Shown: piece by piece, positions 37,531 to 43,657 of the stretch
Layout: each line of letters starts with the position of its first letter
How positions within the stretch are numbered: position 1 is the stretch's first letter
Source of the DNA: a virus
Lineage: Duplodnaviria > Caudoviricetes
Length of the DNA stretch: 47,190 nt
Virus record (IMG/VR): IMGVR_UViG_3300012348_000256
Coordinates: 1-47,190 of that record
Direction: 5' to 3' (one strand)
Notes under the pieces: generated by a model
Database searches by the model: none
What the model was told of the DNA's origin: nothing
Seen by the model: only the letters and a program-made list of their open reading frames with translations
Translations under genes and position numbers: made by a program

Positions 37531-37608
37531 TGGTCTGGGTGGCAGGATTTGAACCTGCGGCCTCCGCCTTCCAAGGGCGGCCGTCTACCGGGCTGACATT
37601 ACACCCAG
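37531..37608 (-). tRNA. tRNA-Pro(UGG)
   Basis: Acceptor stem CTGGGTG/CACCCAG, A73 and encoded CCA; anticodon arm CCGCC-CTTGGAA-GGCGG; T arm GCAGG-TTCAAAT-CCTGC. Confidence 0.92.
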
Positions 37609-37659: not shown

Positions 37660-39525
37660 TCACTTCGCTTCGCCCCAACTCGGGCCAACTTCCACGTCAC
37701 ATCGGTTGGGCACTTCCATCTTGACGCATGTCGCCATGATCTGAGCAGCCTGCAGCGCATCGTCCTTGGACAGCACCGACAGGGCCAGCTCATCGTGCAC
37801 TTGCAAGATTGGATCGAAGCCCGCCTTTTTCAGGGCCACCATGGCTGCTTTGGTCTGGTCTGCGGCAGACCCCTGGATCAGACGATTGAGCCCCTTATAG
37901 GTGCCAGCGCGCTTGATCCTGGAGCCGTATTCAATCACCGCCTGTTCACGCGGCAGCGCTTTGTTCACACCCCACTCCATTGGCTCCCAAAGTGGGAACC
38001 GGCACTTGCGTCCGAGCAGCGTGCGGATCGCGCCGCCAGCAGCCGGGTGGTCAATCCGTTTCATCACCGCGTTGACCGTACCCTTGAGGAACGGGACGTT
38101 GTTGTGGAAGCGCGTGATCAGCTCATCAGCCTCCGACAATGCCAAATCCAGCTGTGCAGCGAGCTTGTTCTTGCCCATGCCGTACATCAGGCCCAGGCCA
38201 ATCGTTTTGGCTGCCTTGCGTTTGATCCCGGCCATGTCCGCCACCATCTGGTGGAAGTCGGTGTTGGGATCGTTGTTGTAGGCGTCGACCATGGTGTCGG
38301 CCCCGGGCAGGCCCAGGAGGCTTGCGTAGTGCACCAAGAGCCGCGGTTCTTGGGACGAGAAGTCATTTGATGCCCACATGTGCCCCTGCTCTGGCAAGAA
38401 CAAACCACGCACCATCGGGCCAATGATCTCGTGCCGAGCGGGGACCTGCTGCAAGTTGGGGTTGGCCATGGACAGACGTCCTGTGACCGTGCCGCCGTCA
38501 TCCGAGCGCATCTGGTTGACGTGGGGGTGGATGCGTCCTGTCTTGGCACTGAAGTCCATGTACGGCTGCAGAAACGTGCTGTGCGTCTTGTTGGTCTCGC
38601 GCGCCTCGATGATCATCTTGGCCAGCGGGTGTTCGTGGTTGTCCAGGAACTGCTTGGTGAAGCTCGGCAGGCCGTTCTCGGTCTTGCTGTACTGAATGCC
38701 CAGACGGTCGAAGGCGTGGGCAATGGACTGCGCAGCCCAGATGTCAATCTTGACACCGGCTTGCTCCTTCATCTCTTTGAGCAACTGCTGCTCACGCACC
38801 TTCATGCGGTCAATCATCAGGCCGCACTTCTCTCTGTCAAAGCGGATGCCCTTGCGGGTCATCTCCAGCAGCACAGGGAACACATCGGTCTCGACACCGA
38901 AGATGGATTCGACTTCATCCTGGCGCATCTTGATCTTGAAGTGCTGCCAGAGCTTGAGGGTCAGCGCCGCGTCCTGCTCCGCATACTCACCAACGTACAT
39001 CGCCGGGAGCTTCCAGAGCTCCTTTTTAGGATGGACACCGAAATCGGCTGCGGCCTGCTTGAGGCCCTGCTCGCTCTTAATCTCTTGGAGGTAATCGAAG
39101 CCTAGCGCATTGAGACTAAAGCTGAAGCGATTTTCGTCAAGCAATGGGGCGGCGAGCATGGTGTCCATGATCCGGCCATTGACGGTAAACCCAGAGGCCA
39201 TAAGCCAGCCAATGTCGTAAGCGGCGTTATGGCAAACTTTGTCAGCGTTGGTAGATAGGATATCGGCAATCCATCGTTCCACTCGGCGCTTATCCAGGTT
39301 TCCGCCTCCGGCATGTGCGACAGGGTAATAGCCTGACCACCCGTCGACTGCCACAGCATACCCGACGATGAAACCATCACCACGCGGCCATCCAGGTCCA
39401 AAGGATTCAAGGTTTGGGTCACAAGTTTCGAGGTCAATTGCTATCTCCTTGGCTGTGGATAAATTGGGGAAGGTTTCTGGGGCGACCCACTCTGTGGGGG
39501 TCGGGAAAAGTGGCATGGTTCTCAT
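37660..39525 (-). CDS. polA: family A DNA polymerase (3'-5' exonuclease + polymerase)
   Basis: DLET exo I, HNAAYD, YAEQD, TGRLS..PNLQQ, DFSSQEPR, KTIGLGLMYG, QGSAAD, VHDEL. Confidence 0.95.
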   Translation of the reverse strand: MRTMPLFPTPTEWVAPETFPNLSTAKEIAIDLETCDPNLESFGPGWPRGDGFIVGYAVAVDGWSGYYPVAHAGGGNLDKRRVERWIADILSTNADKVCHNAAYDIGWLMASGFTVNGRIMDTMLAAPLLDENRFSFSLNALGFDYLQEIKSEQGLKQAAADFGVHPKKELWKLPAMYVGEYAEQDAALTLKLWQHFKIKMRQDEVESIFGVETDVFPVLLEMTRKGIRFDREKCGLMIDRMKVREQQLLKEMKEQAGVKIDIWAAQSIAHAFDRLGIQYSKTENGLPSFTKQFLDNHEHPLAKMIIEARETNKTHSTFLQPYMDFSAKTGRIHPHVNQMRSDDGGTVTGRLSMANPNLQQVPARHEIIGPMVRGLFLPEQGHMWASNDFSSQEPRLLVHYASLLGLPGADTMVDAYNNDPNTDFHQMVADMAGIKRKAAKTIGLGLMYGMGKNKLAAQLDLALSEADELITRFHNNVPFLKGTVNAVMKRIDHPAAGGAIRTLLGRKCRFPLWEPMEWGVNKALPREQAVIEYGSRIKRAGTYKGLNRLIQGSAADQTKAAMVALKKAGFDPILQVHDELALSVLSKDDALQAAQIMATCVKMEVPNRCDVEVGPSWGEAK

Positions 39526-41060
39526 AGCATGAAGCCTTTATCTTGAAACTTGGGAAGCACTAAGTGCAATGATTTCTTCGCGCGGGTAATGCCCACATAG
39601 AACAGGCGGTTCACGTTGTCCCCGTTCTTCTGGAATTCTTTGGCGAACTTTGTGGAGATGTCCATGAGCAACAAGACGTTGTCCGCCTCCCCGCCCTTGG
39701 CTCCGTGGATTGTGGATAACTTGACCCGGTTGCCATCCGTGAGTTTGCCGCCGCGGCGCAGCACAGAGATCAGATACTCGCGCTTGTCGTTGGCGATCTT
39801 GCCCAGGGCCTCGTGCCAGATGGGCGTGGCCAGCAGGCCAAAGTTGGCTTGCAACTGGTCGATGGTGTGCAGCTCATTGCGATCGCCCTTGAAGGTCCGC
39901 GAGCCTCGGGCCACGATCTCTGAATCGAGATACCGGTAGACGTTGGAGATGTCCTCGCCGATCACTGGGTGGCCCTTGCGCAGGCGCTCCCAACTGACCA
40001 CGGCTTTCAGGATGGTTGGTCCCACGCTAGGAACACCGCTGCGGTCAAACAGGATGCCCTTGGCTTTGAGCCACTCGCCCACTGGGTTGAGCAGGTAGTT
40101 GGTGCTGGCCATGATGAGCCACTGGCCGTCATCCACGGGCACGTCTTCAAAGCGGCGGTAGGTCAGGACCCGGCCCTCGAAGTCGCGTGGCCTCCACACC
40201 TTTTCTTGGCGCTCACGGATGCGGGTGACGATCGTGTTGGCCAAGTGGTGCACGGTGCTCGGAACGCGGTACGACTGCTGCAGCACCTTGATCGTGCCTT
40301 GGAAAGACAGGAAGCTCTTGACGTCTGCGCCTGCCCATGTGAACACCGCCTGATCGTCGTCGCCTGCAAGGTACACACGCTTGGCTTTGGAGGCCAATGC
40401 TTCGACCAGTTGCCACTGCAATCGAGATAAATCCTGCGCTTCGTCCACGATTAGAACCTCCAGTGAGGGTAATTGCTCGTGTTGGGTGACCACCATCTCC
40501 AAGAGGTCGGTGAAGTCCAGCAGGTCCTTGCTGCGCTTGAAGTGGCGGTAGGTGCGCTCGACAAACTCAAAGTGGAACCACTCGATGTCCAGCCCTGAAT
40601 CGTTGTAGTGCTGGCGCAGGTCCACGCCGCGGATGCGGGCGAGGTTGATCTCGTTGAGGATGGGATTGTCGGGCTTGGACAGGTCTGTGTCGTCGTCCGC
40701 GTTGATCTTGATTTCGATGCCAGCTTGCGCTGCGAACTCGCGGTAGTGCTCTGCCTGCATGACCAGATTAGGCTTGACGGCCAGGACATGGTAGGCGAGG
40801 CTGTGCAGTGTGCGGAAGAACGGGAAGTCGGTCTTGGCGTGCAGATGCGGGAACTTGATCAGCGCACGGTCGCGCGCTTCGTTGGCAGCCTTTCTGGTGA
40901 AAGAAAAGTAGCCAATCCTTCCAGAGGAAACCCCGGACTCCAGTTCCCGGTCCACGACGTTGAGCAAGTAGGTTGTTTTTCCGGAGCCTAGCTACGGAGG
41001 GCCGAAGACTTTTTCAATCTTCGGCCCGAACTCCTCATGTTGGTGTTGGTAATTTGCCAT
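39522..41060 (-). CDS. UvrD/Rep-like SF1 helicase; Walker A interrupted by in-frame TAG at 40992-40994
   Basis: IEKVFGPP*LGSGKTT, FSFTRKAA, RTLHS, VDEAQD, AGDDDQA, QSYR, STIHGAKGGE, FYVGITRAK. The ORF-track start at 40967 lacks Walker A; the true start is uncertain. Confidence 0.8.
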
Positions 41061-41445
41061 GCCAGCGAATGTGATTGTGTAGGGTTAGGTGTTGGGACTG
41101 CGTCATCACTTCCAAATTGGAGTGATCGTTATTCCACTTATTGCCGTCCTTGTGGTGGACGATCTCCCCTGGTTCCAAAGGCCTGCCAAGCATCTTTTCC
41201 GCCTCAACGCGGTGCATATGCCTGCCTTTGTACTTGACGTAGTTCTCAGTGCTCCCCGAATAGCGAAGTGCATCGGGGTCCCGGAACGATGCCCGCCGAA
41301 CCTGCTCTTCAGGGGAGAGGAGGCGGGAGTTGTGGCCATTGATAAACCGCAGCGGTTGGCCTTTAACCTGGCCTCGCTTGCTTCGTGTTCGAGTTGCAAT
41401 AGGGGTAGGCTCCCCGCATCCGCACTCGCAGAGTTTTTCCAGCAT
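41035..41445 (-). CDS. HNH homing endonuclease
   Basis: CECGCG N-terminus; HR..AEKMLGRPL.PGEIVHHKDGNKWNN.HSNLEVM. Confidence 0.9.
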   Translation of the reverse strand: MLEKLCECGCGEPTPIATRTRSKRGQVKGQPLRFINGHNSRLLSPEEQVRRASFRDPDALRYSGSTENYVKYKGRHMHRVEAEKMLGRPLEPGEIVHHKDGNKWNNDHSNLEVMTQSQHLTLHNHIRWHGKLPTPT

Positions 41446-41550
41446 TTGAGTGTCCCTTCAGACTCGCCCTTTAAGGAAGTAGGCCAGGCAGAAAGGGAAA
41501 CTGCTTTTCGCTCCGTCGAGCTAGGCCAACAGCCTGCAGTGTACACCTTT

Positions 41551-41808
41551 TCAATGTTCGGTGTCATGGTCCGTCACTCTATACATGTCGTTGGGCCAGA
41601 CAAGGATCGGTGTGTCTATTCCGATGTACGCGCCCTCGATGTTGAACTCGATGAACTCGCGTGCATCCTCAAACGTCATGCCATCACGCGACATCAAGAT
41701 GTTGCGGATCACCTCAGCGTTGTAGACCAGCACTTCGGTCTGGCCCTTCTTGTTCCAGACCATGGCTGGGCCAATGATGGCCTCGTCTAAATCGTCCCAC
41801 TTTTTCAT
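41551..41808 (-). CDS. conserved small phage protein
   Basis: DEAIIG...DGMTFEDAREFIEFNIEGAY.G..TP. Confidence 0.7.
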   Translation of the reverse strand: MKKWDDLDEAIIGPAMVWNKKGQTEVLVYNAEVIRNILMSRDGMTFEDAREFIEFNIEGAYIGIDTPILVWPNDMYRVTDHDTEH

Positions 41809-42128
41809 GTCTGCCTCTCCGGTAAATGTGCGTGGGCTACCAACGTGGTTATCTGGCCAGGGGTGTTTCGAAACACCACTACGGCATGCGCGCCCTCGGC
41901 AGTATCAATGCCAATTGTGTACTCTGCCTTTGAGAAGGCCATGCGTTGTCCTGCTTCCACCCCTGCGGCATATCCCTCTTGCCAAGACATAAAGGACTGC
42001 GGCGGGTGGTTGGCAATCACAAGAGCGGCAAAGCGCTCAAGGTACTTGTACTCGCTGAACTCGAACCGATGCTCATCGTCCCTTACTCCCGCCTGCCTCG
42101 CTATACGGATAGTGTCTTCTTTGTTCAA
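41805..42128 (-). CDS. hypothetical protein
   Basis: IRIARQAG...LERFAALV module. Confidence 0.55.
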   Translation of the reverse strand: MNKEDTIRIARQAGVRDDEHRFEFSEYKYLERFAALVIANHPPQSFMSWQEGYAAGVEAGQRMAFSKAEYTIGIDTAEGAHAVVVFRNTPGQITTLVAHAHLPERQT

Positions 42129-43657
42129 AATGGACTCCCTTCGGTGCGTTGGGTTTGTGTATCGAACGGAGCTTCTTGTTTGCCGAAGCGCGGGATGCGC
42201 CAGCAGCGCACAGCGCGGCCCTTGAGAAACAGGCTGATGGGCTCACCACCGATGTCGCGCAGGCGCTGAGCCATCTTGGGTGCGGTCAGGGCTTTGAAGT
42301 TGTTGCGCAGCAGGTGCGCGTCCATGTCCTTCATGCGGAAGTAGGTCTTGCCCTCGTCCTCGTCTGTCCATGGGCGGCCCATGAGCATCTCTTCGCGGGC
42401 CAAGGCCTGTTGCATGTGGGTCGTGAACTCTTCAAGCAGGTCCATGAACCGACCGATGACGCTGGTGTCCTCGGAGGCCACGGTGATCTGCTCGGTCTCC
42501 ACCATCTCTTTGAGCAAAGCGTTGAGCAGGTTTTCCCAGTCAACCTTGCGCAGCGTAGGCGGCACGGTGTTGATTTTCTCAAGGCACGCCTTCTGGAAGG
42601 CAGCTTGGTTGTAGAGCATCTCTGTCTCGAGCTCTACACGCTTGCCGTTGACGTCCAGGAACCACAGTGGTGGGTCGCTGGCGTACTTGGACAAGCTGGC
42701 TATCTGAGCCGCATCAGGAGCATGGGCTCCAATGCCGAACTTGCGCGAACGACAGAGCCCCGAGTTACAAAAGCTGTTGAGAGGGGAGTCCTTGCACTTG
42801 TACTGGTAGTCCTTCTTGCCAGCTTGCTTGATGATGATCTGGACTTCGTTATTTGGCAAAGGCGGCGCGACATACTTGAGGTTGTACTCAACCATCTTGT
42901 CTTCCCATCCGCTTGGAAAAGCCCGCTTAAGATAGACCCCAATGTTGAATAGCCCATTATTGCGGGTGCCCTCCGGAAACCCTTGCGCACAAAGAGCCTG
43001 TAAGCAAGGCGGGCCGTCTTTGATGGGGCTCTCCGCTTGTTTAGGCGGCTCAGGGAAATTGAGTGGCGTGTCCTGGACGTTGGCTGCGTGGAGCGCATAG
43101 AACTCCTCAAGGGTCGCCGCAGAACCGTCGGCATTGAATGCATACCGCGTACCTGAGTCTCCACCGAAGTACGGCAGGTTGAGGAAGTTGCCGGTGTCTC
43201 CTCGGTCCACGAGAATCTCTGCCTGCTTTGGGAATATCTCCCGGCCTGCCTCGCCAAGGAGAGCAGCAGCGTTCTTGAGATACGTCTGGTAGTCACGAGC
43301 AGGCGCAGGCGTTTTTGTAAATAGGAATACATGTGCACCTCCTGATTTGCTGCGGCACACAACGAGCGGCAGCTTCAATTGTTGGATTTTCTCAACCAGG
43401 CCTTTATGGTCGAGCGGATACTGATCAATGTCGATGCAGCCCCAGATGCAAGTGTTGTCAGCACGAATCGGAATAATCCCAAGGGACGGATCAACCCCCT
43501 CAAAATGCTGGACCCATAAATCGTCAGTAGGTGGCTTACGAACCACCGTGGCTTGTCCTGCCTGCTTTCCATCGCCTCGCTCCGATTTAATTCTGTACGT
43601 GCCATAAGCGATGTCGAGCCCGCTGAAGATGGCTTTGAATCTGGTTATATCTGTCAT
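42125..43657 (-). CDS. AEP-superfamily primase with PriCT-like domain
   Basis: WGCIDID, CRSKSGGAH, EIFPKQ, GNFLNLPY, PPCL, EGTRNNGLF. Confidence 0.8.
   Translation of the reverse strand: MTDITRFKAIFSGLDIAYGTYRIKSERGDGKQAGQATVVRKPPTDDLWVQHFEGVDPSLGIIPIRADNTCIWGCIDIDQYPLDHKGLVEKIQQLKLPLVVCRSKSGGAHVFLFTKTPAPARDYQTYLKNAAALLGEAGREIFPKQAEILVDRGDTGNFLNLPYFGGDSGTRYAFNADGSAATLEEFYALHAANVQDTPLNFPEPPKQAESPIKDGPPCLQALCAQGFPEGTRNNGLFNIGVYLKRAFPSGWEDKMVEYNLKYVAPPLPNNEVQIIIKQAGKKDYQYKCKDSPLNSFCNSGLCRSRKFGIGAHAPDAAQIASLSKYASDPPLWFLDVNGKRVELETEMLYNQAAFQKACLEKINTVPPTLRKVDWENLLNALLKEMVETEQITVASEDTSVIGRFMDLLEEFTTHMQQALAREEMLMGRPWTDEDEGKTYFRMKDMDAHLLRNNFKALTAPKMAQRLRDIGGEPISLFLKGRAVRCWRIPRFGKQEAPFDTQTQRTEGSPF

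Follow-up and report, generated by a model that had tools for sequence, protein, structure and literature searches.

To our knowledge, established natural translational bypassing is limited to gene 60 of bacteriophage T4 and its homologues, the byps of Magnusiomyces mitochondria, and the terminase of Streptomyces phage Hau3. In T4 gene 60 a 50-nt bypass occurs together with the HNH element MobA (Manning and Atkins, bioRxiv 10.1101/2022.08.31.505936; PMC2988022). Synthetic stop-hops, in which nine bases give one amino acid, have been described in E. coli, and in its available text the same 2016 review knows of no natural in-frame stop-hop (PMC5009743). In the Hau3 terminase, gaps of 7-10 nt are bypassed and the junction peptide was confirmed by mass spectrometry (PMC10732093); as far as its available text goes, this is the nearest tested short bypass.

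Here we describe a 6-nt coding gap in the Walker A motif of a phage helicase gene. The window analyzed is a stretch of 47,190 nucleotides of a virus (Duplodnaviria; Caudoviricetes; record IMGVR_UViG_3300012348_000256), and the features discussed below are collected in the table. The gap is real and conserved, and from comparative sequence data we consider it highly probable that it serves a programmed stop-hop borne on a cassette with a homing endonuclease. No published report of a hop in a helicase Walker A was found in a literature search of incomplete coverage.

Table. Features of the helicase junction and its surroundings, in positions of the window.
Feature	Position	Strand	Remarks
Displaced original helicase start (ATG ... 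MTPNIEKV), left edge of the cassette	41543..41567	-	Matches the intact helicase start of L067 and L005, then breaks off
Promoter-like site ATGACA-18-TACACT, ahead of int-alpA	41538..41567	-	Consensus match only, 9/12
int-alpA RNA motif, leader of the HNH gene	41467..41531	-	Rfam RF02996, 55.8 bits (gathering 35.8)
Free-standing HNH endonuclease gene, 136 aa, putative homing endonuclease	41035..41445	-	PF13392 HNH_3, E 7.6e-15; PHROG HNH families
Internal Shine-Dalgarno-like GAGGAG	41031..41036	-	Ahead of the hairpin by 3 nt; lacks an ATG, GTG or TTG at a distance suited to initiation
12-bp hairpin	40999..41027	-	41027-41016 pairs with 41010-40999; 3' arm made up of the V-F-G-P codons, stopping 2 nt short of take-off
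Helicase ORF1	40995..41060	-	MANYQHQHEEFGPKIEKVFGPP; ATG at 41060 is the sole in-frame start, without a clear Shine-Dalgarno
Predicted take-off codon CCG (second Pro)	40995..40997	-	
6-nt coding gap: stop TAG and predicted landing triplet CTA	40989..40994	-	
Helicase ORF2, SF1 UvrD/PcrA-like, 488 aa from resume codon GGC (GSGKT...)	39522..40988	-	
tRNA-Pro(UGG), after polA, only tRNA in the window	37531..37608	-	Not part of the element

The minus strand at the junction reads ATT GAA AAA GTC TTC GGC CCT CCG TAG CTA GGC TCC GGA AAA ACA, letter for letter as in the original prediction of a helicase Walker A split by CCG-TAG-CTA, with TAG at 40994-40992, CTA at 40991-40989 and the resume codon GGC at 40988-40986. 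The hexamer TAGCTA interrupts a helicase gene of the UvrD family; the frame after it is open for 488 codons, close to the ~480 of the original prediction, and contains the UvrD-helicase domain (PF00580, E 1.7e-27 in a Pfam search), the single UvrD match in the whole record, which is 79%-complete. The gene sits between the primase and polA genes, an arrangement shared with phage DSL-LC04, whose helicase is the best GenBank phage match (59.9% identical); the four genome matches are short MAG contigs with a distant helicase group. Gene callers place the helicase start at TTG 40967, past the stop. The 481-aa product beginning past the stop is called on a second, separate Logan contig of 10,474 nt as well, and L111, which at 88% identity is the nearest relative to bear the gap, shows TAACTA at this position; both lend indirect support to TAGCTA being no assembly error. 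The 23 genes of the window end in TAA (14) or TGA (9) and none in TAG, so the TAG of the gap is an unusual stop for this phage. In addition, a 16-codon ORF in another frame (41039-40988, minus strand) starts at an ATG that overlaps the stop of the HNH gene, and its terminal TAG extends across the landing codon into the resume codon.

In the available accounts of T4 gene 60 and MobA, several features resemble those of the helicase locus: a stop after the take-off codon, a landing triplet read by the same tRNA, a Shine-Dalgarno-like signal with a 5' stem-loop, a free-standing nuclease upstream, a cassette that supplies a new N-terminus, and repeated insertion with loss and swapping of the nuclease, the gap lying in an invariant catalytic motif. 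There are also differences. The target is the Walker A motif of an SF1 helicase and not the large-subunit gene of a topoisomerase II; the gap is 6 (7-13) nt long and mostly in frame, in contrast to about 50 nt; the predicted hop uses tRNA-Pro, with a landing often mismatched at position 2; 8-30 codons precede the take-off; and the helicase gene is not split into two subunits. The helicase hairpin lies wholly 5' of the take-off and the Shine-Dalgarno motif 5' of the hairpin, not in the gap, which is too short to hold one. A T4-like take-off stem-loop was rejected, as the small one that folds in the window is not conserved and the consensus fold has only 2 pairs there.

The geometry of codon, stop and matching codon is identical to that of the synthetic E. 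coli stop-hops as their source presents them, whereas the helicase case is natural and conserved and comes with putative dedicated RNA signals. The Hau3 terminase is similar in its short gaps in a conserved phage ATPase gene and in that a Shine-Dalgarno motif, structure and landing codon were put forward as signals; unlike the helicase hop, it is triggered by the hungry codon UUA, is out of frame, and concerns 3 of 100 genes, and no nuclease is mentioned in the available text (PMC10732093). The Magnusiomyces byps, as far as their description extends, are likewise mobile inserts made harmless by bypassing, with a relaxed match of take-off and landing; they differ in being 27-55 nt long and mitochondrial, in an unused sense codon, and in having no Shine-Dalgarno motif and no nuclease.

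Comparison of homologous helicases, proposed in the original prediction as a check, revealed that a gap at this Walker A codon recurs in 82 distinct junctions, which form 69 clusters at 90% identity and reach down to 24% identity with the window helicase. Among 76 full-length relatives (80 loci minus 4 cut at the 5' end), 74 have GPPG[ST]GKT, and the other two carry, at that codon, a 6-nt insert that opens with a stop. With the scan pattern TRR-NNN, which permits TGG and leaves the second triplet free, a stop followed by CYN was seen in 38/38 viral matches, and each of the two in 64/66 metagenome matches. Four of the five scans required TRR at the gap start, so that the sole unbiased test of the stop is the scan with a free gap of 1-30 nt: 29 of its 44 matches were stop-first helicase gaps, no helicase with a sense insert was among them, and the other 15 were chance matches or intact motifs in another frame. 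When the scans were pooled, a similarity filter kept 185 of the 225 candidates; the 40 that were dropped comprise 13 short helicase-like fragments, including L245, and 27 judged to be chance. A wider scan for the same gap in other GPPGxGKT proteins (67 stretches) yielded only five further helicases, the remaining new matches being chance or intact motifs in another frame.

The first gap triplet is TAG in 26 clusters, TAA in 22, TGA in 20 and TGG in one, a stop in 68/69; the gap length is 6 nt in 64 clusters, 8 nt in two, and 7, 10 and 13 nt in one each. The single sense case, L218 (near 1801-1832), has the pair TGG CCG at the gap position and keeps the Shine-Dalgarno motif and hairpin; it would be either a hop across a slow Trp codon or an insert of two residues that is tolerated. 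The 13-nt gap of the L134/L266 junction ends in ACA and holds a short tandem duplication, and may be a variant or an assembly artefact. The excluded L245 has TAG GCG, with a poorly pairing landing.

These data bear on simple readthrough, or reassignment of TAG, which would give GPP-x-L-GSGKT with two extra P-loop residues tolerated. Such a product would be compatible with the prevalence of in-frame gaps, with a last gap triplet that is always a Pro or Leu codon, and with the sense pair of L218. We nevertheless regard it as very unlikely, given that all three stops are in use, that out-of-frame gaps of 7, 8, 10 and 13 nt exist, that the free-gap matches hold no helicase with a sense insert, and that G10-P11-P12-G13 is invariant and contiguous in 28/28 intact proteins. 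Nor is TAG reassigned in this phage, since there is no in-frame TAG in the 7741 codons of the 23 window genes.

The codons on both sides of the stop are consistent with a hop of tRNA-Pro. The take-off codon is CCG in 47 clusters, CCA in 14, CCT in 8 and CCC in none, as opposed to 18/58 CCC in intact genes. The landing triplets are CTG (17), CTA (16), CCG (12), CCA (12), CTT (6), CCT (3), TCG, TTG and ACA, that is, CYN in 66/69 clusters; none ends in C, and 68/69 are able to form Watson-Crick or G-U pairs with a UGG anticodon. Four of the five gaps longer than 6 nt terminate in CCT, CCG, TCG and CCG; the fifth (L134, ACA) pairs poorly. The purine or pyrimidine class of the third base agrees between landing and take-off in 62/69 clusters (Fisher p 5e-4, a value that ignores relatedness). 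In E. coli the cmo5U of tRNA-Pro(UGG) pairs in the order A,G > U > C, in the available part of the source (PMC4519876). The codon spectrum, with neither CCC take-off nor C-ending landing, fits UGG as the predicted hopping anticodon; the absence of CCC could possibly reflect avoidance of +1 slippage at CCC-U instead. Several features that characterize bypassing are found here together: take-off and landing triplets that one tRNA could read, a slow codon in the A site directly after take-off (a stop everywhere except for the one TGG), a motif restored by removal of the gap, and gap lengths independent of frame. The hop efficiency may be low, because most landings (39/69, CUN) are imperfect matches.

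The original prediction held further that the hop is serviced by the tRNA-Pro(UGG) of the phage, correctly named there as the sole tRNA of the window. The hop is strongly supported by the comparative data and the UGG anticodon fits them, whereas the link to the phage-encoded tRNA is not supported. A tRNA was found in 0/38 gap loci and a phage tRNA-Pro in 0/25 other gap loci that reach past polA; nine of ten whole records, including two complete gap-bearing genomes, have no tRNA, and the tenth has a weak partial hit of undefined type. At the same time, tRNA-Pro lies beside 3 of 58 intact helicases (L017, L029, L039), the L017 copy being identical to that of the window and the L039 copy one base different. 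Hence the phage tRNA is not part of the hop system, being absent from the other gap loci and present beside intact helicases. The window tRNA-Pro has A at position 37, while E. coli tRNA-Pro has a frameshift-suppressing m1G37, and the UGG isoacceptor is the essential one in E. coli, in the part of the source available (PMC4519876). That the hop is real and depends on this tRNA is hard to credit: the codon spectrum does point to UGG, and A37 in place of m1G37 could favour slipping in this phage, yet the distribution described above and an essential host isoacceptor with the same anticodon speak against dependence. The phage tRNA may boost the hop locally.

Conserved RNA signals precede the take-off. 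The original prediction had reported an 11-bp hairpin at the run-up; the hairpin is real, with a stem of 12 bp instead, and in the window it is more stable than expected (z -4.8; 0/200 shuffles equally stable). The 48 nt before take-off fold with a mean of -23.0 kcal/mol in 81 gap loci versus -9.6 in 58 intact ones, and the stem ends 1-2 nt ahead of the take-off in 68/69 clusters. In 23 sequences selected for equal loop length, two-sided changes occur in 7 of 13 hairpin pairs (0/500 shuffles), RNAalifold recovers the same stem, and the 5' arm tracks amino-acid changes encoded in the 3' arm (YGPP and LGPP variants). A Shine-Dalgarno motif directly 5' of such a hairpin is present in 59/69 gap clusters versus 1/58 intact genes. 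It is not a plain initiation signal in 42/69 clusters, since no start codon lies 4-13 nt downstream. We regard the two as putative stimulatory signals on the grounds of this conservation. ORF1 has 8-30 codons and is variable except for [KR]-[VI]-F-G-P-P, in which Pro-Pro may slow the ribosome. An in-frame upstream start is present in all 69 gap clusters; that the sole start of ORF1 in the window (41060) has no Shine-Dalgarno motif counts against the stop-hop.

Upstream of the junction lies a cassette which, like the Shine-Dalgarno motif, is missing from the original prediction. Its order is displaced start, promoter-like site, int-alpA, HNH gene, new short N-terminus, GAGGAG, hairpin, second IEKV, FGPP and gap. 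Promoter-like sites number two against 1.1 expected, and relatives have similar -10-like boxes ahead of int-alpA. In L111, int-alpA and almost all of the HNH gene are deleted, in frame with the original start. An HNH-type nuclease gene is located upstream of 33/69 gap clusters (HNH_3 in 26, other HNH or endonuclease-VII-like in 7) versus 0/58 intact junctions; none was found in 36/69 clusters, 6 of which have less than 700 nt upstream, with 89 of 103 upstream ORFs searched against Pfam. In L092, a Mom-family gene (PF25680) stands directly upstream of the gap-bearing helicase. Among 41 int-alpA matches, 19 lead this HNH family and a gap helicase follows in 19/19, many of them near-duplicates; the other 22 lead different genes, several of which are small Cys/His-rich ORFs resembling nucleases. 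Changes in the loop of the second int-alpA hairpin (CCCUU, CAUCA, CAUUAA) are matched in two complementary copies further downstream (window 41445-41531, minus strand; L320-L359), the second of which lies at the ribosome-binding site of the next gene; this suggests, from the covarying letters, a candidate translational switch.

The distribution of the gap fits a mobile insertion. On a tree of 98 helicases, built by a quick method with which gains and losses are inseparable, the gap label is scattered, with 16 changes, at least 8 of them forced by starred branches. Between the near-identical L079 (gap) and L080 (intact), the 54 nt around the junction contain 14 differences and the 105 nt that follow contain one, which looks like a co-conversion tract. 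In the window, the 15 nt directly downstream of the gap have five differences from L001, the protein of which is 92% identical, and none from the gap-bearing L085 (72%), so the first ~15 nt of ORF2 look co-converted with the cassette. Patchy insertion at the same site with a co-converted flank, the mark of an HNH cassette, was found here.

A pseudogene, an assembly error, or a restart past the stop that would yield a helicase lacking the beginning of Walker A is, in our view, still less probable than the readings weighed above. Gene callers do begin the protein at TTG 40967, and a few gap loci have a second stop downstream (L204, L235 and L315 at 72 codons, L228 at 16, L141 at 174), which could be either decay, a frameshift error or a second interruption. 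An insert unique to one genome with relaxed dN/dS downstream had been named beforehand as the sign of a pseudogene; instead, the gap occurs in 69 clusters, and dN/dS downstream of it is 0.04-0.18 in 12 gap-gap pairs. For the window it is 0.14 against L111 and 0.10 against L001, comparable to 0.07 and 0.13 in two intact pairs. The UvrD match is the only one in the record, and the KVFGPP and GSGKT codons vary synonymously on either side of the gap. The GKT of the P-loop is catalytic and would be lost by a restart at 40967; CTA, CCA, CCG and CTT are not start codons.

Least probable of all is removal of the six bases from the RNA as a micro-intron or by editing, perhaps guided by the hairpin or int-alpA RNA: the 5' half of the window int-alpA can pair with the junction (-25 kcal/mol), but int-alpA is nearly invariant while the junction varies, the duplex energy ranges from -25 to -10.5 over 22 loci, int-alpA is missing from many gap loci, the gap constraints are codon-like (a stop and a match to the Pro anticodon) and not splice-like, and Rfam gives no intron match at 40500-42200. 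Three specific candidates were rejected as well: long-range int-alpA/junction pairing as guide RNA or in splicing, with no covariation; a group I or II intron, as an Rfam search to E 10 over 40500-42200 yields int-alpA alone and no ribozyme core; and excision of the stretch from the displaced start to the junction by way of a 5-nt repeat that the two share, which on inspection would drop GPP.

Overall, the conserved stop, pairable landing, out-of-frame gaps, covarying hairpin and purifying selection strongly support a stop-hop, which can be pictured as follows. The ribosome would translate the short ORF1 and pause once CCG occupies the P site and UAG the A site. The 3' arm of the hairpin would then lie inside the paused ribosome, and full pairing would be possible only if the ribosome advanced, so that refolding of the hairpin at the mRNA exit would push it forward; mRNA refolding at the exit has been proposed for gene 60 bypassing in the available text of bioRxiv 10.1101/2024.12.09.627546. 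The folded hairpin would also bring the Shine-Dalgarno motif to an initiation-like spacing, with about 3+7 nt left unpaired between it and the landing triplet. Peptidyl-tRNA-Pro, most probably the UGG isoacceptor of the host, would depart from CCG, slide six bases and re-pair on CUA (C-G, U-G, A-U), and decoding would resume at GGC. Nine bases would yield one Pro, and the motif would therefore read GPPGSGKT.

The gap would be the 3' end of a mobile cassette that comprises promoter, int-alpA leader, HNH gene, new N-terminus, Shine-Dalgarno motif, hairpin and gap. By analogy with T4 mobA and gene 60, the putative HNH endonuclease probably cleaves intact helicase genes close to the codons of Walker A; the gap would abolish that cleavage target, and so probably protects the gene while the invariant motif stays unchanged. 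The nuclease would often be lost later with the hop retained, and the hop probably spreads with a selfish DNA-cutting gene. With less assurance, we find it rather likely from the sequences compared that this is a widespread natural in-frame stop-hop that works through a minimal signal set, a Shine-Dalgarno motif bridged by a hairpin which closes behind the take-off and sets the hop length, and that at least three different HNH-type nucleases have spread by means of it through the Walker A motif of phage SF1 helicases.

With some 70 natural variants at hand of a cassette about 50 nt long, the role of the 5' hairpin, the Shine-Dalgarno spacing and the tolerance of P-site mismatches become directly testable. 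Gene callers truncate the gap-bearing helicases, and hops may underlie some of what is called readthrough or pseudogene in phages. If the proposed explanation is true, short hops would offer homing endonucleases a third general means, next to introns and inteins, of residing in invariant catalytic motifs.
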